A stretch of DNA of 64,000 nucleotides from NCBI GenBank assembly GCA_963749085.1, contig CAVVLG010000002.1:83178-147177 (forward strand). The letters are read 5' to 3'. The notes beneath the pieces were generated by a model that saw only the letters and a list, made by a program, of their open reading frames with translations, had not been told where the DNA came from and did not search any database. Of the stretch, positions 7,191 to 64,000 are shown piece by piece; positions within the stretch are counted from its first letter, which is position 1; each line of letters starts with the position of its first letter. Position numbers and translations under genes: made by a program. The stretch comes from Candidatus Adlerbacteria bacterium (GTDB lineage: Bacteria; Patescibacteriota; Minisyncoccia; Phycocordibacterales; SBAW01).

Positions 7191-7865
7191 TCATGCCACG
7201 AGGCGGTACCCGACGCCGCGGACTGTCTCAAAATGAGCCGAGTTGCTGTTCTGACCGAGTTTTTTGCGCAGATTCTTCATGTGCACGTCGAGAACGTTGC
7301 TGTACGTCAGAGCGTTAAAGTCCCACACTTTATTGGAGAGCTCTTCGCGCGTGAATACTTCTCCGGGCCGGCGAAGAAAACATTCAAGGAGAGAGTATTC
7401 CTTGAGGGTCAGGGGAATTTCGGTATCCCCGACGGACACGCGGCGGGCGCCGGTATTTATCGTAATATCGCCCACGGCATGTATCACCCTCGGTGCTGCC
7501 TTGGGGCGCCGCGATACGGAGTTAATGCGAGCGATGAGCTCTTCCGAAGAAAATGGTTTTACCACGTAATCGTCGGCACCCGAGTTCAAGAGCTCAACTT
7601 TATATTCCGTTCCGGATTGACCGGTAAGAATAATGACCGGTGTGGTGATATGGTCGGCTCGCAGGAACTTGGTAAGAGTAATTCCGTCGAGGCCCGGCAG
7701 CGTGAGATCAAGAATGATAGCGTCGTATTCCTTGTGATAGAGCGAGATGCGATTTCGCGCTTTCTCGCCATCCGCGAGCCAGTCTACCGCAAAACCCTTC
7801 AGTTCAAGGATTTTCTTGAGGTTTTTTGCAAGGGCCTCCTCGTCCTCTACGATTAAGAGTCTCAT
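7191..7865 (-). CDS. OmpR/PhoB-family response regulator (receiver plus winged-helix DNA-binding domain)
   Basis: MRLLIVEDEEALAKNL...ILDLTLPGLDG...ADDYVVKPFSSEEL. C-terminal TVRGVGYRL. Confidence 0.92.
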   Translation of the reverse strand: MRLLIVEDEEALAKNLKKILELKGFAVDWLADGEKARNRISLYHKEYDAIILDLTLPGLDGITLTKFLRADHITTPVIILTGQSGTEYKVELLNSGADDYVVKPFSSEELIARINSVSRRPKAAPRVIHAVGDITINTGARRVSVGDTEIPLTLKEYSLLECFLRRPGEVFTREELSNKVWDFNALTYSNVLDVHMKNLRKKLGQNSNSAHFETVRGVGYRLVA

Positions 7866-39434: not shown

Positions 39435-40511
39435 ATGGCTAACAAACTCAATTACTACGAACTGCTCGGAGTCGATAAAAAGGCATCCAAGGATGATATC
39501 AAAAAAGCATTTCACAAACTCGCTCATAAATATCACCCGGATAAAAAAGAGGGCGACGCCGACAAATTCAAACAAGTAAGCGAAGCATACTCGGTACTCT
39601 CCGACGACAAAAAACGCGCCGAATATGACTCCTATGGTCGCGTCTTCAGCGAAGGAGCGGGCGCTGGGGCTTCGGGTGGCGCTGATTTTGATTTTTCGCA
39701 ATTCCAGGATGCGTTTTCGCAAGGTGGATTTGATTTTGGCGACATGTTCGGCGACCTCTTTACCGGCGGTATGGGGGGCACCCGCCAGAGACGCGGTCGC
39801 GACATCTCCATTGACCTTGAGATATCGTTCAAAGAATCAGTGTTCGGCACCAAGCGCACGGTCCTCTTGGCTAAGACGGCGCAGTGCGAAACGTGCCACG
39901 GCAGCGGCGCTGAGCCGGGTACGTCTCTGGAGACCTGCAAACAGTGCAATGGGACCGGCAAAGTCCACGAGACGAACAACTCGTTCTTCGGACAGATAAC
40001 GATGGTGACGGAGTGCCGGCAGTGCCACGGCACGGGCAAGATTCCAAAGGAGAAATGTCATACATGCCGCGGCGAGGGCGTCTATCGCAAACAAGAGGAG
40101 GTGGCGGTCATGGTGCCCTCGGGCATCGAGGGAGGGGAGATGATACGGCTCACCGGCATAGGCGAGGCGGTTCAAAACGGCCAACCGGGGGATTTGTATG
40201 TCAAAGTCCATGTGGAGAGGGACTCGCGCTTTAAAAAGGACGGTGCCAATGTGGTCACGGAGCTATCGATAAAACTATCGGACGCGCTCTTGGGGAGCGA
40301 GTATACCATACAGACGCTCGACGGCGAGGAGCTGCTTCCTATTCCGGCTGGCATTTCGCACGGCGAGGTACTCAAAGTGAAGGGTCGCGGCGTGCCTATG
40401 GGCCGGGGCAAGCGGGGCGATCTGTTTGTGAGAATCAAAATAACACTGCCACAAAAACTATCCCGCAGCGCCCGCGCACTCATCGAGAAGCTCAAGGAAG
40501 AAGGGGTATAG
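39435..40511 (+). CDS. dnaJ: chaperone DnaJ (J domain, G/F region, 4x CxxCxGxG zinc finger, C-terminal domains)
   Basis: [68 protein letters not shown]. Confidence 0.96.
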
Positions 40512-40522
40512 CCAATAAGGTA

Positions 40523-40550
40523 AAGACCGCATGCTCGATGCGGTCTTTTA
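40523..40550 (+). terminator. rho-independent terminator (aagaccgcat-gctcg-atgcggtctt plus tta). It overlaps the stop of the convergent gene.
   Basis: Read from the sequence. Confidence 0.7.
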
Positions 40551-40844
40551 GTCGAGATTGTGTTTTTGCAGCACCTCCTCTACTTTTGCTTCAATCTCGT
40601 GCCACGCGTACGCGTTCGCTTTGAGTACCGTTATCTTATAGGGATCGATGTAGATGCTGCATACGCCATCGATGGCAAGAAGATCGCTCGCGAGCCAGCC
40701 ATTTTTAAGCCGGTCCGCAGATAGAGGAATAGCCTGCTCCCAGTCGAGCCGGTCATAGCTGAGCGGCAGGGAAGTGATGAGGCGCTGCCGTACGTGAAAA
40801 CTTGCGAGATGCGGATGCTTGCGGAAGAGCTCAAGTTGAGACAT
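40548..40844 (-). CDS. hypothetical protein (about 99 aa)
   Basis: ORF with AAAGGA Shine-Dalgarno 6 nt before the second ATG. No known motif. Confidence 0.4.
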   Translation of the reverse strand: MSQLELFRKHPHLASFHVRQRLITSLPLSYDRLDWEQAIPLSADRLKNGWLASDLLAIDGVCSIYIDPYKITVLKANAYAWHEIEAKVEEVLQKHNLD

Positions 40845-40916
40845 CGGCATTCCTTTCTATGAGAAATCGTCCGACCTCAGTATAGCGAATAGGATTTTTT
40901 CTGCTATGCTGTCTTC

Positions 40917-41861
40917 ATGGTAGAGAAACGGCGCATTTTTACTGGTTTGAAACCAAGTGGCCAATTACATATTGGCAATTATTTTGGCGCGCTCTTGCCC
41001 ATGGTGGAAATGTTCAGGGATCACGAAGGACTCATCATGATTGCCGACTATCATGCAATGACGACTTTGAAAGATCCGAAGGCCATGCACGATAACATCC
41101 TTTCAATAGCTAAAGATTACCTGGCTGCGGGTATTAATCTTGAGAACGCCACCATGTTCAAACAGTCCGACATTCCAGAACATACTGAACTCGCGTGGAT
41201 ATTTGAGTGCCTCGTTAGTGTGCCGTTCTTGATGCAAGCGCATGCCTATAAGGACGCAATGGCGAAGGGTTTGGATGCCAACGCCGGGCTCTTTAATTAC
41301 CCCATGCTTATGGCAGCGGATATTCTGCTCTATGACACCGACGTGGTGCCGGTAGGGCAGGACCAGCGTCAACACATCGAGTACGCACGCGAGGCAGCCT
41401 CGAAGTTCAATCTCGCTTTTGGGCAGACGTTTAAAGAGCCTGAGGAGTTGATACAAACGCAAGTGGCTGTTGTGCCCGGAACCGATGGGCAGAAGATGAG
41501 CAAGAGCTATGGCAATATCATTCCGCTCTTTGGCACAAAAGACGAAATAACCAAAGCAGTTATGAGCATCGTGACCGACTCCTCCGGGGATAGACCGGCA
41601 AATGTCTATGCCATTCACGCACTATTTAAGTCGAGACCGGAGCTTGAAAGTCTCTACGCAGCCAATAAGGGCAACTACAAACTGCTCAAAGAAGCTCTTA
41701 TCGAGGACATTGAAGCGTCTGTCTCTCCCTTGCGAGCAAAGCGCGACATGATTTCAAACGATGACGTAAAAAGAACTCTGGCAGAAGGGGGGAAGAAAGC
41801 TCGAACGCAGGCCGAGGCGAAAATGAAAGAAGTACGGGAGAAAATAGGGGTAGCGCTTTAA
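40917..41861 (+). CDS. trpS: tryptophan--tRNA ligase
   Basis: TGLKPSGQLHIGNYFGA (HIGH motif) and KMSKSYGN (KMSKS motif). 314 aa. Confidence 0.88.
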   Translation: MVEKRRIFTGLKPSGQLHIGNYFGALLPMVEMFRDHEGLIMIADYHAMTTLKDPKAMHDNILSIAKDYLAAGINLENATMFKQSDIPEHTELAWIFECLVSVPFLMQAHAYKDAMAKGLDANAGLFNYPMLMAADILLYDTDVVPVGQDQRQHIEYAREAASKFNLAFGQTFKEPEELIQTQVAVVPGTDGQKMSKSYGNIIPLFGTKDEITKAVMSIVTDSSGDRPANVYAIHALFKSRPELESLYAANKGNYKLLKEALIEDIEASVSPLRAKRDMISNDDVKRTLAEGGKKARTQAEAKMKEVREKIGVAL

Positions 41862-41865
41862 TGCT

Positions 41866-43188
41866 ATGGAGAGGACTTTAATCGCGGATTTACATACAAA
41901 GATCGGAGGGCAGGCCTTGATACAAGGCTCAGTTTCGGTTCGACGCGATCAAGGCAAGATGGTGTTTTTCGACTTTCGCGATAGGTCAGGAAGCGTGCAG
42001 GGCGTGGCGCTTCCCTCCGAGGAGCTTGCCATGGCAGTTGCTAAAGAAGTTCGCGCTGAGTACGTCGTTACTGCCTCAGGGGTGGTTAACAAGCGCCCGG
42101 AGAAGAATGTGAATGAAGGCACTCTCAACGGCAACCTGGAACTCCACGTGCAGGCGCTTGAAATACTCTCCAAAGCTGAAATCCCGTTTGAGCTCGGCGC
42201 GGAACTCAATCTCGACACGTATCTCGACAATCTGCCCTTTACGCTGCGCAGCCAGCGTTCAAAGGACATCTTCACCGTCCAGTCTGAGATTATTGAAGCG
42301 TTCCGCGAAGCCCTGTGGGAGGAAGACTTTATGGAGTTTCAGGCTCCGGCCATAGTCGGGGGAGACGCTGAAGGCGGCGCTGCAGCGTTTAAGGTTGACT
42401 ACTATTATGATCAGAAGGCTTTCCTCGCCACCTCACCGCAGTTGTATAAGCAGATCATGACGGGGGTGTTTGAGCGGGTGTTCACGACACCAAAAATCTT
42501 CCGCGGGGAGAAACACTCCACGTCGCGGCACTTAAGTGAGCTCACCCAGATGGACTTCGAGATGGCGTTTATCAAAGACCACCACGACGTGATGGATATG
42601 CTCGAGCACGTCATGAAGCACATTGTCGCCAAGGTGATAGAGAAGCACGGCGATATTTTGCAAAGCATGAGCATTGAAGCGCCACTTCTGCCGAAAAAAT
42701 TTCCTTCGATAAAACTACGTAAGGCGCAGGAGATACTAGGCGCCGCCAAAGAGCCCGACCTTGATCCAGAGCAGGAGCGGGAGTTGTGGGAGTGGGCCAA
42801 ACGGGAGCATCAGTCCGACTTTGTGTTCGTGACGCATTTTCCGATAGAAAAACGTCCCTTTTATACCTACGAAGATGAAGATGACCAAGGTTACACCAAG
42901 TACTTTGACCTCTTATTCAGGGGGTTGGAAATAAACAGCGGGGGACAGCGAGTCCACAATTATGAAGAGCTGGTTGAGCGCATTAATGCTAAAGGACTTG
43001 ATCCGGCGAAATTCTCCTTCTATTTGCAGGCATTCAAAACGGGCATGCCACCTCATGGGGGATGTTCCACAGGACTTGAGCGCCTTACCGCAAAAATGTT
43101 GAATCTGCCGAACGTAAAAGAGGCGGCTCTCTTTCCACGGGACTTAAATCGTATAGATACGTTGCTGTCGAGTGATAAGAAAGACTAG
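41866..43188 (+). CDS. aspS: aspartate--tRNA ligase, archaeal/eukaryal-type (about 440 aa, possibly non-discriminating)
   Basis: Class IIb anticodon-binding OB fold. FLATSPQLYKQ. Motif 2 FRGEKHSTSRHLSELTQMDFEMAF. Motif 3 GMPPHGGCSTGLERL. Confidence 0.75.
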   Translation: MERTLIADLHTKIGGQALIQGSVSVRRDQGKMVFFDFRDRSGSVQGVALPSEELAMAVAKEVRAEYVVTASGVVNKRPEKNVNEGTLNGNLELHVQALEILSKAEIPFELGAELNLDTYLDNLPFTLRSQRSKDIFTVQSEIIEAFREALWEEDFMEFQAPAIVGGDAEGGAAAFKVDYYYDQKAFLATSPQLYKQIMTGVFERVFTTPKIFRGEKHSTSRHLSELTQMDFEMAFIKDHHDVMDMLEHVMKHIVAKVIEKHGDILQSMSIEAPLLPKKFPSIKLRKAQEILGAAKEPDLDPEQERELWEWAKREHQSDFVFVTHFPIEKRPFYTYEDEDDQGYTKYFDLLFRGLEINSGGQRVHNYEELVERINAKGLDPAKFSFYLQAFKTGMPPHGGCSTGLERLTAKMLNLPNVKEAALFPRDLNRIDTLLSSDKKD

Positions 43189-43288
43189 TTCGATTCCTAG
43201 ACACCCAGCCATTGACAGCTAGCACGATTCGCGTTGTTTTATGCTAGCTCAGGATACTTTGTAATATGAAGATATAATCTCTAAATCA

Positions 43289-43645
43289 ATGGATAAGAAA
43301 GTTATCTTTATTGGACACCCGATCAGTGGGGACATTGAAGGCAACGTACGTAAAGTACTTGCCATATGTGAACAGATCCACAAGAGCGGTTATATACCGC
43401 TGGTGCCCTATCTTGTATCTTTGCAGTATTTGAATGACGCAGTCACAGAAGATCGCGAACTTGGTATCGAAGTCAATCACGAGTGTTTCCGCAGACGTTT
43501 TGTGGACGAACTCTGGCTTTATGGAGAGCACATTTCTAAAGGTATGATCGGGGAAATAGAGCTTGCTAAAGAGCTTGGTATCCCAATTGTGCCAAAGACT
43601 GAGGGAACAAAACACGCCTTAAAAGAGCTTGAGCGGAATGTCTAG
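43289..43645 (+). CDS. DUF4406 / nucleoside 2-deoxyribosyltransferase-like small protein
   Basis: KKVIFIGHPISGDIEGNVRKVLAICEQIHKSGYIPLVPYL. Low-GC context. TATAAT 10 nt upstream. Confidence 0.5.
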   Translation: MDKKVIFIGHPISGDIEGNVRKVLAICEQIHKSGYIPLVPYLVSLQYLNDAVTEDRELGIEVNHECFRRRFVDELWLYGEHISKGMIGEIELAKELGIPIVPKTEGTKHALKELERNV

Positions 43646-43658
43646 CCCTATTACCTGG

Positions 43659-44126
43659 CTACTTGTACATTGTTACATCAGACATTTTGCCAGCGTTATC
43701 ATAAAACAAAGCAAAGTGTACCCGGCTGATGTCCGACGAACTTGTCCGCTGTAGTGCTTCGTAAACCAATTCACCCTGACGATAAGAGTTGAGATAGGGG
43801 ATGAATCGTAAACGGGTATACTGGCGACTCTCTGCGACTCGCGTGATGCAATTACCCGCTTCATCGAGCAAAAGACAACCGCCCCAATTTTTGATTCCAC
43901 CGAGCCAGAAGGGAACGTAAAACGGGGCGTAGAGGAAAATATCCACCAGGTTAGGAAGAGGTATGACCCTATTCAAGAACGCGAAATCGATGCGCTGCAC
44001 ACTCGTTCTCATCCTGTCTGGTTGAGTGCGCACCAGATTTCTGTACTTCCCTCTAATGAAGGGGAAGTCCTTTAGAAACAGCTCGTTCTTCCTTTGTTGT
44101 ACCAAGTCATGATTTACGTCTGTCAT
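43659..44126 (-). CDS. hypothetical protein (155 aa) in the low-GC island
   Basis: ORF with an ATG start. No recognisable motif. Confidence 0.45.
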   Translation of the reverse strand: MTDVNHDLVQQRKNELFLKDFPFIRGKYRNLVRTQPDRMRTSVQRIDFAFLNRVIPLPNLVDIFLYAPFYVPFWLGGIKNWGGCLLLDEAGNCITRVAESRQYTRLRFIPYLNSYRQGELVYEALQRTSSSDISRVHFALFYDNAGKMSDVTMYK

Positions 44127-44364
44127 GACACACCTTTCTGCGGCGTCCCGCCGCTACTATGAGATAGCGTCCCGCTACCTCCACCATTGGCTTCCCGCCA
44201 ACGGTTTCCGAGTTGTTTCTACCACAAGGAAGTGTATCGGGTCAAGTAATTGCCCTACAGAGGGCTTCCACTTCTTCATTTGCACTTTACCCAGCTATGG
44301 TATACACTGCATCTACAAACGGCTTCGGCCTGCCCCCCGCCAGAGATGGCGGGGGGAAAACATT

Positions 44365-44778
44365 TTACAGGTCTAAGTTAGGGAAACAGGCACTGACTAC
44401 TGCCTTGGTCAGAGCATTAAAAGTGTCCTGGTCCATCGTGGCGATTTTCATGGCTAATCGCTTGCGGTCAACAAAACGAATCTGCGAAAGCACCGCGACC
44501 GCGTCGCGTCCGGAGACATCGCCGACCGAGAAATAGTATTTGCCTTTTTTTGGCTTGGCAGTAAGCGGCACAATCAAACATGCATCAAGATTGAACTTGG
44601 AGAGTATGACCACAGGACGCGTGAATAGCTCACTACTACCATCTTGCTCGTAGCCGATGTTTGCGCCAAGTGCGCACCACCACACCTCGCGCTCATGGAA
44701 CAAAGCAGTACCTTCCACCTCATTGAGCTGTTCCTTCTTGCTATGCCACTTCCAAAAATCTTTTTTCATTTTTGCCAT
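44365..44778 (-). CDS. PemK/MazF/EndoA-family endoribonuclease toxin with a short N-terminal extension. No upstream antitoxin gene.
   Basis: REVWWCALGANIGYEQDG..RPVVILS...CLIVPLTAKPKK...LSQIRFVDRKRLAMKIATMDQDTFNALTKAV aligns along its whole length with Kid/EndoA. Start placed at an internal ATG. The track ORF extends to 44838. Confidence 0.6.
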   Translation of the reverse strand: MAKMKKDFWKWHSKKEQLNEVEGTALFHEREVWWCALGANIGYEQDGSSELFTRPVVILSKFNLDACLIVPLTAKPKKGKYYFSVGDVSGRDAVAVLSQIRFVDRKRLAMKIATMDQDTFNALTKAVVSACFPNLDL

Positions 44779-44874
44779 TGTAGCATTACTATCAACGCTT
44801 CTGGTATAAAAAAGGGGTGCAGTCGGCGTATAGATCATCTACCAAGTTCTCACTACGGCAAACCAGGAGTAATC

Positions 44875-46209
44875 ATGAAAAAAGAAAACCTACTCCGCGC
44901 GACCAAGTACCTAGAGTCGTGGGCTGATTTCAATTTCCCTTTTTCAAGGATGCCCGGCCTTGTAATAGCTCTCCAAGAGGGAGACAAGATAGTGTTTCAA
45001 AAAGCGTGGGGAATGGCCAATGTCGAAAGAAAAATCCGCATGCGAACAAATCATCTCTTCCGTATAGCCTCTCACTCAAAGATGTTCACGGCGGTCTCCA
45101 TCATGCAGTTGGTTGAGAAGGGCAAAATACGTCTCAATGAACCGCTCGTCACATATCTCCCGTGGCTCAAAGAAGCGAAGGACAACAGATACCGAAAGAT
45201 CACCGTGCGTCAGGTCATGGAACATGCGGCCGGTATTATCCGGGACGGTCTCGACTCAAACTACTGGGACCTGCAAGCTCCTTTCCCAACGAGGGAGAAA
45301 TTGATAAGGGACTTCAAGTCGACCAAGCTGGTATTCAATCCGAATAAGCAGTTCAAATACTCAAACTACGGTTTTTCTTTGCTCGGACTTTTGATAGAGG
45401 AGGTAAGCGGCATGTCGTACGCAGACTATCTCAAGAAAAATATCTTCACTCCCTTACGTATGCGCAATGCGGGAGCGGATATTGACGGGGTAGATAAGTC
45501 CCGCTTCCCAGTACCTTACTCACGAGAGAATAAAGCACTCAAAAGGTCTCCGTTGAAGAACCCCAGTAGCAGAGGCATGGCCGCGGCCACTGGGGTGTAC
45601 GCCTCCGCGGAGGACCTCTGCAAGTTCACGCGCATCTTCTACACTAAAAACAAGGTCATCTCCGAGAAAAGCATTCGCGAAATCACTCGTATGCACTGGC
45701 ACACCGACAAGAAGGATGCCACTAAACTCTACGGATTAGGATTTGACCGTCGTAAGATAGGCTCGAAGTGGTACGTGGGGCATGGGGGAGGATTCCCTGG
45801 GTTCATAACCCGCACCATGATTGACCGAAAGGATAAAATTACACTCGTGGTCCTTAAAAATTGCCTCTACGGGGCTGATTTCACTGCAAGTACGCTCACT
45901 ATCCTCCAGTTTTTTGAGAACATGAACATATCCTCTTCCACGAAAAAGGCGGACGTATATGAGGGGAGATACGAGAATCTCTGGAGCATACTGGATATCA
46001 TTAATCGTGGAGACAAGTTAATTGCTTTTAGTCCGATTGGTTGGGACACTCCCAAGGACGCGCAGGAACTTAAAAAGATTGGAAAAGATAAGTATCTGAT
46101 TACAAGGGCAGATAGTTTCTTCTCGCCCGGCGAGCTAGTAAAGTTCATGCACAAAAACGGTGCCATTCGGTCGGTTATTTATGCCGGTGCCAAAGCTTCC
46201 AAGGTATGA
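44875..46209 (+). CDS. serine hydrolase of the beta-lactamase / penicillin-binding-protein (class C-like) family
   Basis: SxxK (SHSKMF) and YxN (YSNYGF) motifs. AGGAG Shine-Dalgarno 7 nt upstream of the internal ATG. The track ORF start at 44644 overlaps the MazF-like gene. Confidence 0.75.
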   Translation: MKKENLLRATKYLESWADFNFPFSRMPGLVIALQEGDKIVFQKAWGMANVERKIRMRTNHLFRIASHSKMFTAVSIMQLVEKGKIRLNEPLVTYLPWLKEAKDNRYRKITVRQVMEHAAGIIRDGLDSNYWDLQAPFPTREKLIRDFKSTKLVFNPNKQFKYSNYGFSLLGLLIEEVSGMSYADYLKKNIFTPLRMRNAGADIDGVDKSRFPVPYSRENKALKRSPLKNPSSRGMAAATGVYASAEDLCKFTRIFYTKNKVISEKSIREITRMHWHTDKKDATKLYGLGFDRRKIGSKWYVGHGGGFPGFITRTMIDRKDKITLVVLKNCLYGADFTASTLTILQFFENMNISSSTKKADVYEGRYENLWSILDIINRGDKLIAFSPIGWDTPKDAQELKKIGKDKYLITRADSFFSPGELVKFMHKNGAIRSVIYAGAKASKV

Positions 46210-46352
46210 AAAATAAAAAGGTCGCCGATTACTACGATAAATTGTATTCCGATGATGAGAAGGCTTTTAGTGGGGAGCCGCTGCTTCTTGTAAAAGTGCT
46301 TACAGAGCAGCTTTCTTCAGGAAGTATTCTGGAGATCGGAGGGTGGGGTTGA
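46206..46352 (+). pseudogene. remnant of a class I SAM-dependent methyltransferase (N-terminal 48 codons only, ends inside motif I ILEIGGWG*)
   Basis: MKNKKVADYYDKLYSDDEKAFSGEPLLLVKVLTEQLSSGSILEIGG then stop. A different frame stays open for about 40 more codons. Confidence 0.5.
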
Positions 46353-46398
46353 ATTGAAGACAGAGATTTTGGATATTGCCGAGGGCAGGGTCCAAATA

Positions 46399-46427
46399 TT
46401 GGACAAAATAGAAAATTTTGGTATAGT
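46399..46427 (+). promoter_or_regulatory. sigma70-like promoter TTGGAC-N17-TATAGT, 9 nt upstream of the pepA ATG (leaderless-type)
   Basis: Read from the sequence. Confidence 0.55.
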
Positions 46428-46436
46428 TTCGGTCTT

Positions 46437-47816
46437 ATGGAATTCACCCCCTCACCTCCAAAAGGAGCCTTTAAAATAAGGCTTATTCTCGGCACTCTCA
46501 ACAAATTTACAGGCCAGGAGCTTCACATAGGCATCGGAAAGGAGAAAATCCTGCCCCGTCGCAAAATGATCCTTTTGATGCGCAAGGTCATATCCCTGGC
46601 AAAACAGAATCAATGCAAGGTCATCGAAATCGACTGGAAGGACATTCGAAAGGTGGCGGATAAGAGAATAAACGATTTTGATCTTGGGGTTCTCATCGGC
46701 ACGGCGTTCGTGATGGCTGACTACGAGCACAACAACTACAAAACTCCTCCTGAGGAAGGCTTTACCTTTATCAAGACAGCTGCTATTCCAAATACTCCTG
46801 CCGTAGGGAAAAATGGCGTGTGGAAAGGGGAGCAAATTGCCTACGCCGTGAACGCCTGCCGCGAGCTCTCCAACACGCCAGGCAGCGACATGACGCCGGA
46901 GCTTCTGAGCGAGGCGGCGATAAAGATGGCACGGGGGACCAAAGCCAAAGTGAAGCTTCTCGATCGCGCCGAGATGTGGAAACTGGGCATGGGCGCCATC
47001 CTCGGTGTAGGCAAAGGCTCTATACATGAGCCGCAGTTCATTATTGTCGAATACTGGGGCACCGACCGCTCAAAGAAACCGATAGTCCTCATCGGCAAAG
47101 GCGTCACCTTCGATACCGGCGGCCTCAACATCAAACCGGGCGATCATATGTACGAGATGCATATGGATATGTCGGGTGGCGCTGCAGTCATTCAGACGGT
47201 AATTTTGGCGGCAAAGCTCGGGATAAAAAAGAATGTGATTGCGCTCGTGCCGGCGGTCGAGAATAATCTGGCGGCCAATGCCATGCGGCCGGGGGACATC
47301 CTTACCTCGCTTTCAAAAAAGACTATCGAAATACTCAATACCGATGCGGAGGGCCGGGTCATATTGGCTGACGCAATAACCTACGCCAAAAAATACAATC
47401 CTGCAGCGGTCATTGATGTAGCGACGCTTGCCGGTGCCGCGCTCGTCGCAATGGGCACCGTTGCATCCGCTTTCATGACCAATAAACCATCCGCCATCGT
47501 GCCACTCATGGACATAGCGGAGCACTCCGGCGACTATATGTGGCCTTTTCCTTTGTGGGAGGAGTACGACGAAATGGTGAAAGGCACGTTCGGCGACGTA
47601 CCCAATATCTCAACCATGGGCAACAGCCGGGAAGGCGGCGTCATCGCCGGCGGAAAATTTTTAGAAGTGTTCGCCAAAGAGCTTAAGTGCCTCTGGGTGC
47701 ACATCGATATCGCACCCAGAATGGTTTCCTATCCGAGCGAGAATTTGGCCAAAGGAGCCGCGGGTGCCCCAGTCCGTTTTCTCCTTGAATTTATAGAGAA
47801 AAATAACGTCAGATAA
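46437..47816 (+). CDS. pepA: leucyl aminopeptidase (M17 family)
   Basis: GKGVTFDTGG, NTDAEGRVILADA, metal-binding residues. Confidence 0.9.
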   Translation: MEFTPSPPKGAFKIRLILGTLNKFTGQELHIGIGKEKILPRRKMILLMRKVISLAKQNQCKVIEIDWKDIRKVADKRINDFDLGVLIGTAFVMADYEHNNYKTPPEEGFTFIKTAAIPNTPAVGKNGVWKGEQIAYAVNACRELSNTPGSDMTPELLSEAAIKMARGTKAKVKLLDRAEMWKLGMGAILGVGKGSIHEPQFIIVEYWGTDRSKKPIVLIGKGVTFDTGGLNIKPGDHMYEMHMDMSGGAAVIQTVILAAKLGIKKNVIALVPAVENNLAANAMRPGDILTSLSKKTIEILNTDAEGRVILADAITYAKKYNPAAVIDVATLAGAALVAMGTVASAFMTNKPSAIVPLMDIAEHSGDYMWPFPLWEEYDEMVKGTFGDVPNISTMGNSREGGVIAGGKFLEVFAKELKCLWVHIDIAPRMVSYPSENLAKGAAGAPVRFLLEFIEKNNVR

Positions 47817-58566: not shown

Positions 58567-59857
58567 CCCCGTCACGCGATTTGCGCCGTCGCCAACCGGC
58601 AATCTCAATTTAGGCGCTGTGCGCGCGGGTATTTTTGCTTATTTGTTCGCCCGACACGCCAAAGGCACCTTTATTGTACGCATCGAAGATACGGATAAGG
58701 AGCGATCAAAGAAGGAGTACGAGAAGGATATTTTGGATTCGCTGAAATGGCTCGGCATAGAGTACGATACCCTCTACCGACAAAGCGATCACGCCACGAG
58801 GCACGAGGAGCTGCTGCGCACACTCATAGCTGAAGATAAGGCGTATGTGTCCAAAGAAACTCCGCAGGAGGAAGGAGGAAGGGAGGAGGTCATACGCTTC
58901 CGCAATCCAAACAAGACACTTAACTTTACTGATCTGGTGCGCGGGGACATTAGTTTCGACACCACTGAACTGAAGGACTTTATCATTGCCAGAAGTCTTA
59001 CCGAGCCGGTGTTTCATTTCGCCGTGGTCGTAGACGACTGGGATGAAGGCGTAACTCATGTCATACGCGGGGAAGATCATATTTCAAACACGCCGCGCCA
59101 GATACTCATACAAGAAGCGCTCGGAGCTCCCCGGCCGCAGTACGCTCACCTGCCGCTTATCTTGGGGAGCGACGGTACCAAGCTCTCTAAGCGCAAAGGC
59201 GCTAAAGCCATAAGTGAATATCGCGAGATGGGGTATCTGCCTGAAGCCATTTTGAATTATGATGCGCTGCTCGGCTGGCATCCAGGAGATGATCAGGAAA
59301 TCTTAAACAAACAGCAGCTTATCGACAGATTTACGCTAGAGCGGGTGCAAAAAAGCCCCGCGACGTTTGATGACACCAAGCTGCTGTGGTTTAACCGTGA
59401 ACATTTAAAATTATTCTCTGAGGACGAGTTCGCACAACGCCTGGAGACTTTTAGTGGCAAAGAAATTGACGAGCGTCTGGTGCCCCTCTTGCGTGAGCGC
59501 TCGCAGACTCTTAAAGGAGCAGCGGACGCCCTTGAGGGGGGAGAATATGACTTTCTTGGCACGGTAGCAGTGAATAAAGAATTACTGCTTAAAGGAGCAA
59601 AGACCGATACTGCATTGGCAAAGAAACACCTTCAAACAGTTTCTGAGCTTCTCGAGCCGCTTAAGGACTTTACACCGGAGCACATAAAGGGCGTCGTATT
59701 CCCCTATGCGACCGAGCAGGGGAGGGCATCCGTATTGTGGCCCCTGCGGGTTGCTCTTTCGGGGAGGGAGAAGTCGCCCGATCCGTTCACTTTGGCCGCT
59801 CTTATAGGCAAAAAAGAAGCTCTGAAGCGCATACAAGAGGCTGTTTTAGCCCTTTAG
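58556..59857 (+). CDS. gltX: glutamate--tRNA ligase
   Basis: RFAPSPTGNLNLGAVRAGIFAYLFAR, HVIRGEDHISNTPRQ, KLSKRKG. ATG 11 nt inside the murG 3' end. The track start is a TTG. Confidence 0.9.
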   Translation: MKSDPVTRFAPSPTGNLNLGAVRAGIFAYLFARHAKGTFIVRIEDTDKERSKKEYEKDILDSLKWLGIEYDTLYRQSDHATRHEELLRTLIAEDKAYVSKETPQEEGGREEVIRFRNPNKTLNFTDLVRGDISFDTTELKDFIIARSLTEPVFHFAVVVDDWDEGVTHVIRGEDHISNTPRQILIQEALGAPRPQYAHLPLILGSDGTKLSKRKGAKAISEYREMGYLPEAILNYDALLGWHPGDDQEILNKQQLIDRFTLERVQKSPATFDDTKLLWFNREHLKLFSEDEFAQRLETFSGKEIDERLVPLLRERSQTLKGAADALEGGEYDFLGTVAVNKELLLKGAKTDTALAKKHLQTVSELLEPLKDFTPEHIKGVVFPYATEQGRASVLWPLRVALSGREKSPDPFTLAALIGKKEALKRIQEAVLAL

Positions 59858-59956
59858 TCATTATCCCCACCCATCTCTTTTAATCGCCCGCCAAAGAGCC
59901 ATACTTATGGGGCGGGGCGGTCGAGCCGCGGTAACATTTCCCTACAATACTCAATT

Positions 59957-60187
59957 ATGAAAGCACTCCATATGATAGCGTTTATCCTCCTTGTCATCGG
60001 GGGACTTAACTGGGGCCTTATCGGCCTTGGCGGTTTTGCCGGCGCTAACTGGAACGTTATTGATTTGATTCTTGGTTCGTGGCCGTCGATAGAATGGATT
60101 GTCTATGTCCTGGTAGGTCTCTCAGCAATTTGGCTTGCGGTGACCCACATGAAGGACTGCAAGACGTGCTCAATGAAAAGCATGTAA
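59957..60187 (+). CDS. DUF378-family small membrane protein
   Basis: MKALHMIAFILLVIGGLNWGLIGL is a DUF378 signature. TACAAT 8 nt before the ATG. Confidence 0.7.
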   Translation: MKALHMIAFILLVIGGLNWGLIGLGGFAGANWNVIDLILGSWPSIEWIVYVLVGLSAIWLAVTHMKDCKTCSMKSM

Positions 60188-60214
60188 ATTTAGTTTTTTC
60201 GCATCATACAAAAA

Positions 60215-60245
60215 ACTCCCCTTTGATTGGGGATTTTTTGTTTTG
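60215..60245 (+). terminator. rho-independent terminator (tcccc-tttgatt-gggga plus tttttt)
   Basis: Read from the sequence. Confidence 0.7.
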
Positions 60246-60247
60246 AG

Positions 60248-60282
60248 ACAAAAAGAACCGCCGGAGAGTTAGACTCCGGCGG
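60248..60282 (-). terminator. rho-independent terminator for purD (ccgccggag-loop-ctccggcgg, T-run on the minus strand). The purD stop codon sits in the loop.
   Basis: Read from the sequence. Confidence 0.7.
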
Positions 60283-61507
60283 CAATGCCATCGTGCACTT
60301 GCTCACCTCCACCAACAATAGAGACGAGGTGTGCGGCTATGTTGCCCCGTTCGCGAGCTAGCGTAAGGGTGGGGGCTATATTAACCACATTCAACACTCT
60401 TCCCTTATTGCCGGCCCGGTATAACCGAGTACCGGGAATCTGCAAGGCGAATTCCGTGCCGTGGAATCCACTTATTTCTTCAGAGTGTTCGGGATAGCCG
60501 CGAGAAGCAATCACGAAACACACGGCGGCGGATTTTTTCCAACGCAATGGCTTCATCTTCGAGAGGCCGCCGAACTCGGTACAGGCACAAAGATAGGGAA
60601 GTAGATCACTCTTAAGCCTGGGCAGCAGTACCTGTGCTTCGGGATCGCCAAATCTCGCGTTGACCTCCAGAAGCTTTGGGCCTTCATTCGTTACCATGAT
60701 GCCCGCATAGAGGACACCGTGATATGGCGTGCCTTCCTGACGCATGGCGTAGAGAAGCCGGTCAATTATTGTTCTTTTTATCTCCCTTAAGAGTTTACGA
60801 CTCACCCCTCGGACAACAGGAGAAAAGGCTCCCATGCCGCCGGTCATCAGTTTAGAACCTGGGAGCGTTTTGTAATCTCGGACAAGCTCCAGGAGCATGC
60901 TCCGTTTCCCGTCGCACAAGGCGGTGACCGACAACTCGTACCCGTATAGCTTGCATTCAATCACAATAGGTTCTACGGACAGAGTGTCCCCAAGTTCCTC
61001 TCGTGCGTCTGCAATAGCCTCCTCGATACTGTCGGGCATTTTCACCCCTTTGCCGTCACGCAGACCATCCGCTTTTATCACCACTGGGTATAAACGGTGG
61101 ATTAGTTCCTCCGCGCGCATCATATCGCGTGCGGTACCATAGTCCGCCGTAGGAATACCGTAGCGCCAGCAAATGAGCTTGCATCGCGCCTTGCTGCCTT
61201 CCAATTGCGCCGCTCCCTGAGACGGACTGAAGATGGAAAGTCCTTGGCGGGTGAATAGATCAGCAATGCCCTGTACGACTGGGCGATCTGGTCCAACGAC
61301 TGTAAACTTCACCTTCTCTTTTCTTGCCAGCCGAAGCAATCCTAAAAGATCGGTAGACTCAACTGGCCGTCTGTCTTTTTCTGGAATACCAGCGTTGCCG
61401 GGAGCAACAATAACCTCTCTTTTTCCATTTCTGGAAAGAGCGGGGTACATGGCATGCTCGCGGCCTCCAGAACCCACGAGCATAATTTTCTCGCGTTTCT
61501 TTAGCAT
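60269..61507 (-). CDS. purD: phosphoribosylamine--glycine ligase
   Basis: MLVGSGGREHAM plus ATP-grasp motifs. ATG preceded by GAGGAGAA. The track start is a TTG at 61531. Confidence 0.88.
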   Translation of the reverse strand: MLKKREKIMLVGSGGREHAMYPALSRNGKREVIVAPGNAGIPEKDRRPVESTDLLGLLRLARKEKVKFTVVGPDRPVVQGIADLFTRQGLSIFSPSQGAAQLEGSKARCKLICWRYGIPTADYGTARDMMRAEELIHRLYPVVIKADGLRDGKGVKMPDSIEEAIADAREELGDTLSVEPIVIECKLYGYELSVTALCDGKRSMLLELVRDYKTLPGSKLMTGGMGAFSPVVRGVSRKLLREIKRTIIDRLLYAMRQEGTPYHGVLYAGIMVTNEGPKLLEVNARFGDPEAQVLLPRLKSDLLPYLCACTEFGGLSKMKPLRWKKSAAVCFVIASRGYPEHSEEISGFHGTEFALQIPGTRLYRAGNKGRVLNVVNIAPTLTLARERGNIAAHLVSIVGGGEQVHDGIAAGV

Positions 61508-61553
61508 CAGATTTCTCCTCGTCTCAAGCAACTACTTCTGTATTAAATATACT

Positions 61554-62297
61554 TTACTTCTTAGAGCTTGACCATTCCTCAAGCTTCATTGCAGTCGTCT
61601 CTATCTTAGCCGCTGGACGGAGAATCTTTATTAGATTCTTCGGTACGGCAGGGGAGTGAGGTGAGGCATCCAAGTCTTCAGCCAGCCAATCGAGGTTTTT
61701 GGACTGCAATAATCGGGCAGGAGAATATCGGCGGAGATTAAATGGTTGAGAATATGTGCGGAGTGTTTTTTTGCCCAGATTTTTTTTATTCACTTTATGA
61801 TGTATGTCGTTCCATAAATAATACTCATGAAAATATGACATGGCTAACTCACGTGGACTTTGATAGACAGGATCGCGCCATCGCAATACTGGATGATTTG
61901 TTTTGCTAATCGCACCCCAGTATTTCCCTTCTTTAAAAATCGCCACTACATGATCCTCATCATCTTGGGTGGTTTGAAAATCCATAACCAACGGCTCCCT
62001 GCCGTGATAGGCGAGGGCAGTGGTCGCCAGTATCGCCCCCTCTATGCATTGAGCTTTCTTGCCCTTCAGCACCTGACGTGGGGTCTGTATCCCCTCCCTC
62101 CCGGTGGGGAAGTTCTCAGGAATACTATCTAGAAAATCTTGGATCTTTTTTGGAGAAAATAATTTATCAAGTATCCGCCGTTCGGCTGAGGAGAACTCCT
62201 CACGGAGTCTTGTTTGATATAAAAGTAATACTTTGTCCATGTCTGTGTTGCTGGGGTAGCCGAGGTTATAGGTCGCACAATATACCTTTTGCGACAC
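61554..62297 (-). CDS. transglutaminase-like (papain-fold) domain protein, putative cysteine peptidase
   Basis: KAQCIEGAILATTALAYHG...DHVVAIFKEGKYWGAI resembles the Transglut_core Cys-His-Asp arrangement. GTG start. An alternative ATG is at 62240. Confidence 0.45.
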   Translation of the reverse strand: MSQKVYCATYNLGYPSNTDMDKVLLLYQTRLREEFSSAERRILDKLFSPKKIQDFLDSIPENFPTGREGIQTPRQVLKGKKAQCIEGAILATTALAYHGREPLVMDFQTTQDDEDHVVAIFKEGKYWGAISKTNHPVLRWRDPVYQSPRELAMSYFHEYYLWNDIHHKVNKKNLGKKTLRTYSQPFNLRRYSPARLLQSKNLDWLAEDLDASPHSPAVPKNLIKILRPAAKIETTAMKLEEWSSSKK

Positions 62298-62462
62298 TTA
62301 ATACTAGCGTCGTTAAGGCATTAAACATCCATTATAATACGATCTAAATTGTCTCCTACGTCTCCTGAGCAATATCTTTCGCAACATAGCGGCTATGAGG
62401 TTATAATCCCGTTTGTAGCATTACTCTTCTCTTGGTGTTTGGTATACTAAAAACCCAAACCT

Positions 62463-62744
62463 ATGCCCTTAGAACGAATTTTGAACGAGATTTTAAACGT
62501 TAATGGTGAGACGGCCTGGATTTCCGTAGAAGGTCTTTACTCATTAAATGAAGTCACCGTGCCACGATATGCAACTCCACCAGGAAGTGTTGCTGGACTG
62601 CTTCAAATCAATCCTATTCGTAGACTCAACTTTAACCCCAATCAGGGGCTAGTTATAAAAGCCTTTATAAATACACGCACAGGAGAGATAAAAACATTCT
62701 TGGCAAAAAATATAGCCGACTTACCAGAAAGAGGACTATTATAG
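62463..62744 (+). CDS. hypothetical protein (93 aa)
   Basis: ORF in a low-GC region. TATACT upstream. Confidence 0.35.
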   Translation: MPLERILNEILNVNGETAWISVEGLYSLNEVTVPRYATPPGSVAGLLQINPIRRLNFNPNQGLVIKAFINTRTGEIKTFLAKNIADLPERGLL

Positions 62745-62746
62745 AT

Positions 62747-63040
62747 ATGGTTGAAGAACTTAAAAAGAGAGCTGCCGAATCCAAGGGAAAAGAAACGGTG
62801 GAAAGAAGCGAATTTGAGGCTGTCATTGAAGCTTTAAATAGAAACCACAATCTTGTTCTTGGATTAACCGTTGGGGTTATTGTTGTTATGCTTGTACTCT
62901 TGATCACGTTAGTAATTCAATCGTTTGACGGGAGTGAGGCTTCTTACCAGAATTTGAATAATCAAATTGCAGAACAAAATGCTAAAATAGATGAGATGTA
63001 CACCATCCTCCAACTTGATTACGCCAATAAGAATCCCTAA
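62747..63040 (+). CDS. small bitopic protein with a C-terminal coiled coil (FtsB/DivIC-like topology)
   Basis: Cytoplasmic N-terminus, one TM, coiled-coil tail. Starts 2 nt after the previous stop. Confidence 0.4.
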   Translation: MVEELKKRAAESKGKETVERSEFEAVIEALNRNHNLVLGLTVGVIVVMLVLLITLVIQSFDGSEASYQNLNNQIAEQNAKIDEMYTILQLDYANKNP

Positions 63041-63108
63041 TTTCTCGCCTATCGGAGGGGGAGTGATTCCCCTATTACCAGTGTCAACTTAGGGGGTATA
63101 ATTGGGAC

Positions 63109-63573
63109 ATGACTAAGACACGGGGGTGGCTTCTCGTGGGTGTGCTGGCAGTGATAATCGTTGGGGTTTACTTTGCAGATCAGAGTCAAAGCTCACCTCC
63201 ATACACGGTGTACCCTGTCTTTTGCGAGGACTGGGGAAACAACCCGCCAGCGGTAGAAGATTTTGCCAATTGCCAAAAGCTGTATGCTTATCCGCGAGAA
63301 ACTTTCACCCTCGATGAAAGTAAAAACCAAATTACAGAAATTTCTCCTGATAGTTCCAGTTTCTATGTCTTAAACAATTGCACTATTGTAGATACAGAAC
63401 ATTGGGAGTGCAGAGGAAATAATGATTTTTTTGGTGAAGTGTCGCCAAGTAGAAATGGGGATAACTTCAGCGAAAATGCTGATGACGGAGGGCCATTCAA
63501 TACTATTTTTGCAACACAAGCGCAATGGGATTCCATAAATAATGGACTTCCTAGCTTACCGCAGGGTAGTTAA
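63109..63573 (+). CDS. hypothetical secreted or membrane-anchored cysteine-containing protein (154 aa)
   Basis: AGGGGG plus TATAAT upstream. N-terminal signal/anchor. Confidence 0.5.
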   Translation: MTKTRGWLLVGVLAVIIVGVYFADQSQSSPPYTVYPVFCEDWGNNPPAVEDFANCQKLYAYPRETFTLDESKNQITEISPDSSSFYVLNNCTIVDTEHWECRGNNDFFGEVSPSRNGDNFSENADDGGPFNTIFATQAQWDSINNGLPSLPQGS

Positions 63574-63612
63574 AGTGACAGTTATCTGTGTTTAATACGT
63601 TACAATGAACCT

Positions 63613-63990
63613 ATGTACCGTTGGTCCGATATCTTTGCCCCGCTCATCGGGCGAATACTCGTGGGCGGCTACTTCTTATGGAACGGTATAGAAACTACGC
63701 TCAACTTCCCTGCTGCCGTAGCTAAAATCGCAGCCACTACTACGCCAGACCCAATTGTCGCCACCGTTATATTCATCGCTATACAGGTACTCGGCGGCAT
63801 AGTGCTGGTCGTAGGCTTCAAAACACGCTCCGTAGCCCTCATTCTCGCTCTCTACACCATCGCAACGGCAGTTGCATATACAGACTTCTCAAACGATCTA
63901 CAGCAAGCGCTGTTTCTGCAAAGCATAGCGGTCATCGGCGGCCTTCTGTATATCTCGGCATTCGGCTCGGGACTTTGGGCCATGGAGTGA
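63613..63990 (+). CDS. DoxX-family membrane protein
   Basis: RILVGGYFLWNGIETTLNF plus four TM helices. TACAAT 6 nt before the ATG. Confidence 0.7.
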   Translation: MYRWSDIFAPLIGRILVGGYFLWNGIETTLNFPAAVAKIAATTTPDPIVATVIFIAIQVLGGIVLVVGFKTRSVALILALYTIATAVAYTDFSNDLQQALFLQSIAVIGGLLYISAFGSGLWAME

Positions 63991-64000
63991 CGCAAAGAGA

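Follow-up and report, generated by a model that had tools for sequence, protein, structure and literature searches.

An active ribonuclease toxin without an antitoxin needs explaining, and such a case is posed by mazF, a gene in a 64,000-nucleotide stretch of DNA from Candidatus Adlerbacteria (GenBank assembly GCA_963749085.1, contig CAVVLG010000002.1, positions 83,178 to 147,177 of the forward strand), referred to below as the window and numbered from its first letter. The gene lies in a block of 3.2 kb between aspS and pepA, which the preliminary description presented as a low-GC (guanine plus cytosine) genomic island with a solitary MazF toxin. No protein antitoxin accompanies the toxin, so that part of the description stands, but mazF is not alone: a conserved small-RNA gene, convergent with it, travels with it from locus to locus. 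The explanation preferred overall, which we consider moderately probable, is that the block is an accessory mosaic insert that harbors a MazF module with an antisense RNA antitoxin. The wider proposal is more tentative, its prospects falling a little short of even: the family to which this MazF belongs, widespread among Paceibacteria, would supply the toxin in an unrecognised toxin–antitoxin (TA) architecture in which a leaderless mazF mRNA is neutralised by a ~51-nt convergent antisense RNA and not by MazE.

The MazF Toxin and the Absence of a Protein Partner

The toxin module spans 44280-44785 (~0.5 kb), with two promoters that face each other. Its features are as follows.

44280-44308, + strand: predicted small-RNA promoter (−35 TTGCAC at 44280-44285, 17-nt spacer, −10 TACACT at 44303-44308)
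44315-44366, + strand: predicted ~51-nt small RNA, antisense to the mazF 3′ untranslated region (UTR) and stop codon; predicted start ~44315
44321-44330, + strand: P1 of the small RNA, GGC-UUCG-GCC, preceded by the 5′ sequence ACAAAC
44333-44342 with 44347-44356, + strand: P2 of the small RNA, a GC-rich hairpin of 10 bp, followed by AAAAC
44363-44366, + strand: U-run of the small RNA, overlapping the mazF stop codon
44365-44769, − strand: mazF/pemK-family endoribonuclease toxin gene, 134 aa (Pfam PemK_toxin PF02452, 8.5e-12); stop codon at 44365-44367
44777-44785, − strand: predicted mazF promoter, extended −10 TGcTACAAT, ending 7 nt before the ATG

The assignment of the toxin to the MazF/EndoA family is upheld by the Pfam match and by a remote match to EndoA (YdcE) from Bacillus subtilis (PDB 1ne8/4mdx). 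Arg51 and Thr70 are invariant in the family and align to the Arg and Thr that we take to be the catalytic residues of EndoA. An N-terminal extension of ~25 aa is also conserved, with F5, W8, and K12 invariant. The homologues comprise 227 matches, are abundant in Paceibacteria, and are up to 94% identical to the window protein, a value far above that for the aspartyl-tRNA synthetase (AspRS) of any relative, which argues for mobility of the gene. Because the homologues are almost all 134 aa long, the start codon is placed at 44769. With this start, mazF lies 105 nt away from the divergent hydrolase gene (~96 nt with the start chosen earlier), a spacing that leaves no room for an upstream antitoxin gene, as had been pointed out before.

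A MazE/PemI-type antitoxin gene (AbrB or ribbon–helix–helix fold) is not found adjacent to mazF in the window or in any homologous locus sampled, and neither PADLOC nor NCBIfam recognises the toxin as part of a system. The eight mazF loci for which DNA was available represent eight contexts, including a PD-(D/E)XK gene, Fic/NTPase genes, FtsW/glycosyltransferase genes, the interior of a type IV pilus operon, trypsin/HicA genes, and type IV secretion system genes. Since the neighbors differ at every locus, no protein partner is conserved. Between loci, nucleotide similarity is limited to the mazF coding sequence, ~20 nt on its 5′ side, and ~60-100 nt on its 3′ side. In the pilus operon (L154/L155:1787-4148), the module is flanked by a T2SSF/PilC gene, whose end is 8 nt from the mazF start, and on the other side by a prepilin gene. 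IS200/IS605-type Y1 transposase genes occur ~1.3 kb or less downstream of the module in two unrelated contexts (L084:6618-7316 and L084:1-295; L154/L155:4284-4955); this may be fortuitous, or it may bear on the way the module moves.

A TAnnnT box, often in the form TGcTACAAT, ends 6-12 nt (mostly 7) before the mazF ATG in 31 of 37 unique loci, and a Shine-Dalgarno sequence is absent. Because the −10 element of the window gene ends 7 nt before the ATG, its mRNA is predicted to be leaderless or nearly so. The −10 boxes of pepA and mazF both end 7-9 nt before the ATG and neither gene has a Shine-Dalgarno sequence (46400-46437 and 44770-44785); leaderless or near-leaderless mRNAs may be common in the host genome.

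The Convergent Small-RNA Gene

The ~55 nt on the 3′ side of the mazF stop codon are more conserved than the coding sequence itself. They consist of a GC-rich hairpin with compensatory changes, followed by the invariant sequence GCAGGCCGAAGCCGTTTGT. An exact match to a conserved 19-mer was used to gather 58 metagenome loci. When these are taken together with the window and the loci from an earlier look-up, ~50 of 66 occurrences of the 19-mer follow a MazF homologue (41-94% identity) at a distance of 30-49 nt, while most of the remaining ones lack the hairpin and resemble chance matches.

Read on the opposite strand, an alignment of 41 unique copies reveals a sigma70-type promoter (TTGaca/TTGCnn, ~17 nt, often TG, then TAnnnT), followed after 6-7 nt by ACAAAC-GGC-UUCG-GCC-UGC, a hairpin, and (G)A(A/G)AAC with a U-run. 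Among 43 unique variants, TAnnnT is positioned 10-13 nt upstream of GGCUUCGGCC in all 43, TTG stands at a spacing of 16-18 nt in 35, and a TG extended −10 is present in 22. The predicted fold, with two hairpins, is shared by all 43, and the RNA measured up to the end of its U-run has a median length of 51 nt. In P2, both sides change at seven of the ten pairs; the covariation score is 0.257 versus 0.119 ± 0.012 for shuffles, none of the 500 shuffles reaches it, and slid partners score 0.05-0.09. The predicted RNA of the window has a minimum free energy of −29 kcal/mol (z −4.2). The covariance model (R1) has a single match in the window (44315-44376, 82 bits) and none at E below 0.01 in a set of 80 aspS loci from relatives. 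A search against Rfam 15 is negative for the whole window at the gathering threshold and for 43100-46600 even at E up to 1, and Tandem Repeats Finder detects no tandem repeats in the latter interval.

All seven look-ups that started from MazF proteins and returned DNA contain the small RNA. A further MazF, 41% identical to that of the window and inserted between trpS and aspS in another genome (L037:7560-8060), has the same convergent layout. Its RNA reads TTGACT, spacer, TATCAT, CACAUU-GGCUUCGGCC-UCCGA-[9-bp hairpin]-GUUUUUU. Because the U6 run makes this a canonical intrinsic terminator in the antisense direction, the orientation of the small-RNA gene is settled. Two loci at contig ends retain an intact small-RNA gene beside a mazF stump, of which the last 26 codons remain in one (L122:8281-8460, with a HicA-like open reading frame (ORF) upstream) and ~6 codons in the other (L128). 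This asymmetry, in which the toxin decays and the antitoxin stays, is expected of such modules.

Identification of the element on the 3′ side of mazF as an attC site, a repetitive extragenic palindromic (REP) sequence, or the end of an insertion sequence (IS) was considered and rejected, as the element is single-copy, has no partner hairpin upstream of mazF, and carries a promoter that faces inward. The RNA gene, with its promoter, structure, and covariation, is strictly co-inherited with a MazF family that keeps its catalytic residues and lacks a conserved protein partner. It is very probably a real gene that is functionally tied to mazF.

A comparable arrangement may exist outside the Candidate Phyla Radiation (CPR). 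The Campylobacter phage CJIE4-3 (L160:1480-2010, KF751795.1) encodes a solitary MazF, 33% identical and with the same N-terminal extension, between its terminase and portal genes. A TGaTATAAT box lies on the opposite strand ~90 nt downstream of this mazF, and a CCCCGC hairpin is found within the mazF 3′ end. The locus has no significant match to the covariance model and no sequence similarity to the CPR RNA. The arrangement may specify an analogous antisense RNA, so that a layout like the convergent mazF–RNA pair may also stand beside the solitary MazF of CJIE4 prophages.

Possible Functions of the Small RNA

It is hypothesized that mazF is transcribed as a leaderless mRNA from its extended −10 promoter, while the ~51-nt small RNA is produced on the opposite strand from its own sigma70-type promoter. 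The small RNA, by prediction the full complement of the mazF 3′ UTR and stop codon, would pair with the mazF mRNA and most likely direct its decay by double-strand-specific cleavage, as in the 3′-overlapping type I systems (txpA/RatA, bsrG/SR4, and par), where duplex formation leads to mRNA decay. Masking of the ribosome-binding site is unlikely because the mazF mRNA appears to be leaderless. Alternatively, the RNA may bind the MazF protein directly in a type III-like fashion. The chances that the small RNA serves as the antitoxin by one or the other mechanism appear evenly balanced.

Several points weigh against this proposal. The small RNA, its ends, and its effect on MazF are predictions from DNA sequence. 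In the window, the −35 element (TTGCAC) is weak and failed a simple promoter scan, and in most members ~5 A-rich nt separate the hairpin from the U-run, so that termination would be non-canonical. The metagenome sample was found via the RNA motif and is biased toward RNA-positive loci; the unbiased sample for linkage amounts to seven loci, or eight with L037. A MazE encoded in trans elsewhere in the genome is also possible, given a view of 64 kb. Moreover, the invariance of GGCUUCGGCC exceeds what antisense pairing needs and may point to some further function, for instance in binding a protein or in stabilising the RNA.

This invariance leaves room for direct binding of MazF, in which the small RNA would inhibit the protein, possibly as a pseudo-substrate, and would not act on the mRNA. 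GGCUUCGGCC and its flanking bases stay unchanged while MazF identity falls from 94% to 41%, and ToxN, a type III toxin, shares the Kid/MazF-like fold. The RNAs of type III systems (toxI, cptI, and tenpI), however, precede their toxin on the same strand, while the RNA gene here is single-copy, downstream, antisense, and free of tandem repeats; its complete complementarity to the mazF 3′ UTR is a hallmark of cis-antisense control. Action on the protein and not on the mRNA is judged quite unlikely.

It is likewise unlikely, though a little less so, that the element has no antitoxin role at all and is a mazF terminator, an mRNA-stabilising structure, or a site for mobility or recombination, with MazF as a domesticated or trans-regulated solo RNase. 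The hairpin is located where a terminator would be, the invariant sequence is also compatible with a protein-recognition site, and the Y1 transposase genes near the module in two contexts are in keeping with a mobility site. Solo MazF homologues are common, and their regulation in trans has been proposed (PMC2701414). On the other hand, the hairpin in the mazF sense is followed by GCAGGCC and not by a U-run, which is found in the antisense direction (U6 in L037), and a promoter with conserved −35, spacing, and −10 aimed into mazF has no role in a mere terminator. The element is present at one end only, with no matching hairpin upstream of mazF, and occurs once per window and not dispersed in the manner of REP sequences or miniature inverted-repeat transposable elements.

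The Insert between aspS and pepA

The genes that surround the toxin module, in the order of the window, are listed below.

39435-40511: dnaJ, backbone
40548-40850, − strand: Nfu-like gene, backbone
40917-41861: trpS, backbone
41866-43188, + strand: aspS, encoding a short AspRS of 440 aa (Pfam tRNA-synt_2, 9.1e-80; 77% identical to Adlerbacteria/Parcubacteria AspRS); left flank of the insert
43188-43211, + strand: 24-mer GTTCGATTCCTAGACACCCAGCCA, a tRNA-Gln-type 3′-end fragment (T-loop, 3′ T-stem, and 3′ acceptor strand with A72, G73, and CCA; no 5′ half)
43289-43645, + strand: DUF7768/nucleoside 2-deoxyribosyltransferase-like gene, 118 aa (Pfam PF24963, 8.6e-24; phrog_355, 1.4e-15)
43659-44126, − strand: orf155, a near-orphan gene of 155 aa (ORF call)
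44875-46209, + strand: serine hydrolase of the beta-lactamase/AmpH/D-aminopeptidase fold, 444 aa (full-length PF00144, 1e-65)
46206-46352, + strand: 48-codon ORF, in ATGA overlap with the hydrolase stop codon and called as a gene in a Logan contig
46400-46427, + strand: predicted pepA promoter (TGGACA, 16 nt, TATAGT, with TG; 10/12 in the promoter scan), where the backbone resumes
46437-47816: pepA (ATG at 46437), followed by scpA, scpB, the D-Ala-D-Ala carboxypeptidase gene (dac), and mraY

Relatives for comparison were collected by an AspRS scan with one genome per GTDB species, which yielded 80 loci with AspRS identities of 57% to 77%, all from Patescibacteria/Parcubacteria (Adlerbacteria, Kaiserbacteria, and Paceibacterota). 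According to tblastn with the window proteins, the order dnaJ-trpS-aspS-(pepA)-scpA-scpB-dac-mraY is common to all 80 loci. The DUF7768 gene, orf155, the hydrolase gene, and the 48-codon ORF have no homologue at the aspS|pepA site in any of them. The extra block extends from 43189, after the aspS stop codon, to ~46399, before the pepA promoter. The gap between aspS and pepA is at most 150 nt in 21 of the 30 loci with pepA and at most 730 nt in 26 of them. In four loci (L002, L003, L018, and L032), different inserts of 1.9-3.7 kb occupy the same junction, three of them clearly below their own locus in GC. These inserts carry unrelated genes (EamA transporter, amine oxidase, PDZ protein, NUDIX, IalB, FMN reductase, and unknowns), and none of the four contains an integrase, recombinase, or transposase gene. 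The N-terminus of the window pepA is normal and matches that of relatives in which pepA follows aspS directly; its promoter also resembles theirs. Because the gene order is kept in relatives, four of them carry other cargo, and the pepA N-terminus and promoter are intact, 43189 to ~46399 is taken as extra DNA at a junction that is recurrently variable in the clade.

The alternative that the four genes are ancestral at the site and were lost by genome reduction in every sampled relative, and not gained, is highly improbable. CPR genomes are reductive and the sample contains no close relative (best AspRS identity 77%), so that differential loss is a formal possibility that counts against insertion. 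The four genes are nevertheless absent from the site in 80 of 80 loci with AspRS identities of 57% to 77%, the composition of the block is atypical, the nearest named relatives of the hydrolase are Saccharibacteria and Microgenomates, and MazF is 94% identical to copies in unrelated contexts, compared with 77% for AspRS.

Base composition makes a smaller contribution to the case. The preliminary description reported a step from about 57% to 45-47% GC right after aspS; the drop is confirmed but was overstated, with aspS at 51.3% (trpS 48.9%), the insert at 47.1%, and the window at 52.0%. Windows of the same size have a mean of 52.2% and a standard deviation (SD) of 2.3%, so that the dip is ~2 SD. 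Composition is not uniform, in that just 1.9% of same-size windows are as low in GC as the insert and its tetranucleotide distance falls in the top 2.5%. This is a genuine dip, though a modest one; composition alone is weak evidence for insertion, and synteny carries the case. The sole other stretch that matches the low GC of the insert (~44-46%) extends from ~59.7 kb to 64 kb; the interval 59700-64000 contains purD (GARS), a weak transglutaminase-like ORF, a DoxX-family ORF, and three small ORFs without a Pfam match.

Since the mazF–RNA unit occurs alone in many other contexts, the insert looks like a mosaic of independent units and not like a single integrated element. At least three units may be distinguished: the convergent pair of the DUF7768 (nucleoside-deoxyribosyltransferase-like) gene and the near-orphan 155-aa gene, the self-contained ~0.5-kb toxin module, and a putatively cytoplasmic beta-lactamase-fold serine hydrolase with its short trailing ORF. 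Viewed purely as an island, the region is ordinary, being a small islet of the flexible genome at a variable junction of an ultra-small CPR genome.

The tRNA-Like Fragment at the Left Border

The first base of GTTCGATTCCTAGACACCCAGCCA is the G of the aspS stop codon (TAG, 43186-43188), which adjoins the fragment. By its sequence, the 24-mer is tRNA-derived, as had been suspected from its 3′-end-like motif. A degenerate pattern of it retrieved five matches from IMG/VR, all of them 3′ ends of tRNA genes and four of the five from tRNA-Gln(ttg). U1 and A72-G73 are present too in a CPR tRNA-Gln of locus L112. The 24-mer is a single copy in the window, with a chance expectation of 0. ARAGORN calls no full tRNA in the whole window, in accord with the earlier reading, and no tRNA gene downstream of aspS in L002-L061. 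The possibility of a tRNA-like minihelix at the aspS 3′ end was rejected, as a 5′ acceptor strand cannot be read upstream in the window or in L008.

Locus L008 (AspRS 69% identical) contains a tRNA-Gln-type 3′ fragment, GTTCGAATCCCAGACGGCCAGCCA, at 7257-7283, straight after its aspS stop codon (aspS end 7256). The position agrees with that in the window to within 1 nt, and the contig ends 94 nt further on. Common descent, a common target site, or a function may account for the agreement. In the metagenome contig L112 (7-186), the mazF–RNA module lies ~90 nt upstream of an intact tRNA-Gln(ctg) gene; in the window, the tRNA-Gln-type border fragment is ~1.1 kb from the module. Between the fragment and the DUF7768 start (43212-43288), the DNA contains an inverted repeat of 8 bp (AGCTAGCA and TGCTAGCT, 17 nt apart) and, at ~43270, a TATAAT box; these may constitute the promoter or operator of the DUF7768 gene.

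The fragment probably marks some past recombination at the aspS|pepA junction. The preliminary description went further and proposed a decayed integration site, which would make the block one island that entered via a tRNA-targeting integrase and later lost both the integrase and the second repeat. The tRNA origin of the 24-mer, its position exactly at the left border, the like fragment directly after aspS in L008, the recurrent variability of the junction, and the deviating composition all suit this history. It is nevertheless doubtful. The 24-mer has no second copy in the 64 kb at up to three mismatches, a repeat scan found nothing flanking, and the search for a direct repeat at the right border gave at best 12-14 matches of 24, which is background. 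No integrase, recombinase, or other mobility gene is matched by Pfam, NCBIfam, or PHROG among the insert ORFs, the inserts of the four relatives are likewise devoid of integrase, recombinase, and transposase genes, and in no relative does a tRNA gene follow aspS. The fragment is also a poor fit to a simple attR because its 5′ side is aspS and not island DNA. Finally, the mazF–RNA unit occurs alone elsewhere, which points to a block mosaic. Of the genomic island, what survives is an insertion relative to the conserved gene order, with deviating composition; a single integrase-mediated element is not supported, and the decayed integration site is unproven. In the same way, tRNA-targeted islands and integrative elements resemble the insert in that DNA of atypical composition adjoins a tRNA-derived 3′-end sequence, but the window insert has no integrase, no flanking direct repeat, no intact tRNA, and a mosaic content.

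Other Genes of the Insert

The gene after the fragment had been described as DUF4406-like. The gene stands, and its family is DUF7768, close to the original call; the Pfam score is 84.1 bits versus a cutoff of 26, with 96 of 98 profile positions covered. Its GC content is 44.3% (45.4% at third codon positions).

The 155-aa gene is present as described, and the suggested homology search of its product recovered very little. A k-mer search of 5.8 billion proteins returned only the protein itself, and an exhaustive HMMER search of 1.8 billion representatives found three remote relatives (E 1e-6 to 6e-5), which can be aligned with it and have motifs in common, such as VQRID-AF and LLDE-G. There is no Pfam, NCBIfam, PADLOC, or PHROG match. 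An AlphaFold2 model from the four sequences is poor (predicted local distance difference test score, pLDDT, 56), and Foldseek against the PDB gave nothing at E up to 0.001. Kinship with a 119-aa ORF downstream of mazF in L082 was considered and rejected, since the two are unrelated. orf155 is a real but nearly orphan gene.

The hydrolase belongs to the beta-lactamase/penicillin-binding-protein family, as proposed. It shares PF00144 and the SxxK (SHSK), YxN (YSN), and HxG (HGG) motifs with AmpH, class C beta-lactamases, D-aminopeptidases, and family VIII esterases. It differs from the AmpH and class C equivalogs in that it scores far under every NCBIfam equivalog cutoff (107.6 versus 266 bits for AmpH; 78.9 versus 415 for class C), has no evident signal peptide, and carries an extra ~100 aa at the C-terminus. 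Its nearest relatives, 52-60% identical, are on short metagenome contigs, and the next (~40%) are from Saccharibacteria and Microgenomates, which fits acquisition by transfer within the CPR. PADLOC found no defence-system match for any insert protein.

A truncated S-adenosylmethionine-dependent methyltransferase had been suggested downstream of the hydrolase; this call is unsupported by homology. Neither the 48-aa ORF nor a 77-aa version joined to the next frame has a Pfam match at E up to 10, an NCBIfam match, or a relevant PDB match, and tblastn of the ORF against the fetched loci gave just chance-level SGSIFEIAxWG segments downstream of mraY. On the short contig with the closest hydrolase homologue, the ORF downstream of the hydrolase is unrelated to the 48-codon ORF.

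Comparison with Known Toxin–Antitoxin Systems

The part of this locus worth following up is the MazF antisense RNA gene and not the island. Comparative evidence from ~45 independent loci links a MazF without a protein antitoxin, in every case, to a structured, promoter-bearing antisense RNA gene. Full-text literature searches found no report of a MazF with a cis-antisense RNA or RNA antitoxin, nor of such a module in Patescibacteria. If the RNA is indeed the antitoxin, the module would blur the classification into type I, type II, and type III systems, bring a new RNA family to a phylum in which regulatory RNAs have hardly been characterised, and account, in a testable way, for at least some of the surplus of "solo" MazF toxins.

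Myxococcus xanthus MazF-mx is an example of a solo MazF. The window toxin resembles such toxins in having no adjacent protein antitoxin, but differs in that every sampled locus also has, in physical linkage with it, an RNA gene that is specific, conserved, and structured. An excess of solo toxins was noted by Makarova et al. 2009, who suggested small RNAs as their possible antitoxins (PMC2701414).

In common with the type II MazEF/PemIK systems (Escherichia coli MazF and B. subtilis EndoA-EndoAI), the module has a toxin of the PemK/MazF fold in which the aligned Arg and Thr are invariant. In contrast to them, it has no MazE/PemI gene at any locus, the partner is replaced by a convergent small-RNA gene, the toxin bears an N-terminal extension of ~25 aa (F5, W8, and K12), and its mRNA is predicted to be leaderless.

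The layout is that of the 3′-overlapping type I systems (B. subtilis txpA/RatA and bsrG/SR4; Enterococcus faecalis par RNA I/RNA II), in which toxin and small-RNA genes converge with overlapping 3′ ends, the RNA is served by a promoter and a terminator of its own, and the whole is a compact mobile module; here, these features are predicted from the DNA. The cis-encoded antisense RNA gene overlapping the toxin transcript that defines type I is likewise found by prediction, in the form of a promoter, structure, U-run, and overlap. However, type I toxins are small hydrophobic peptides, whereas the window toxin is a soluble MazF-fold RNase of 134 aa; the overlap is just ~50 nt (3′ UTR and stop codon), and the RNA has an invariant UUCG mini-hairpin.

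With the type III systems (ToxIN, CptIN, and TenpIN), the module shares a protein endoribonuclease toxin paired with an RNA partner. Type III RNAs, in contrast, are tandem repeats that lie upstream on the same strand and are processed by the toxin, whereas the RNA here has no repeats and is single-copy, downstream, and antisense. The module is best described as one in which a type II toxin is combined with a type I-style (or type III-like) RNA partner.

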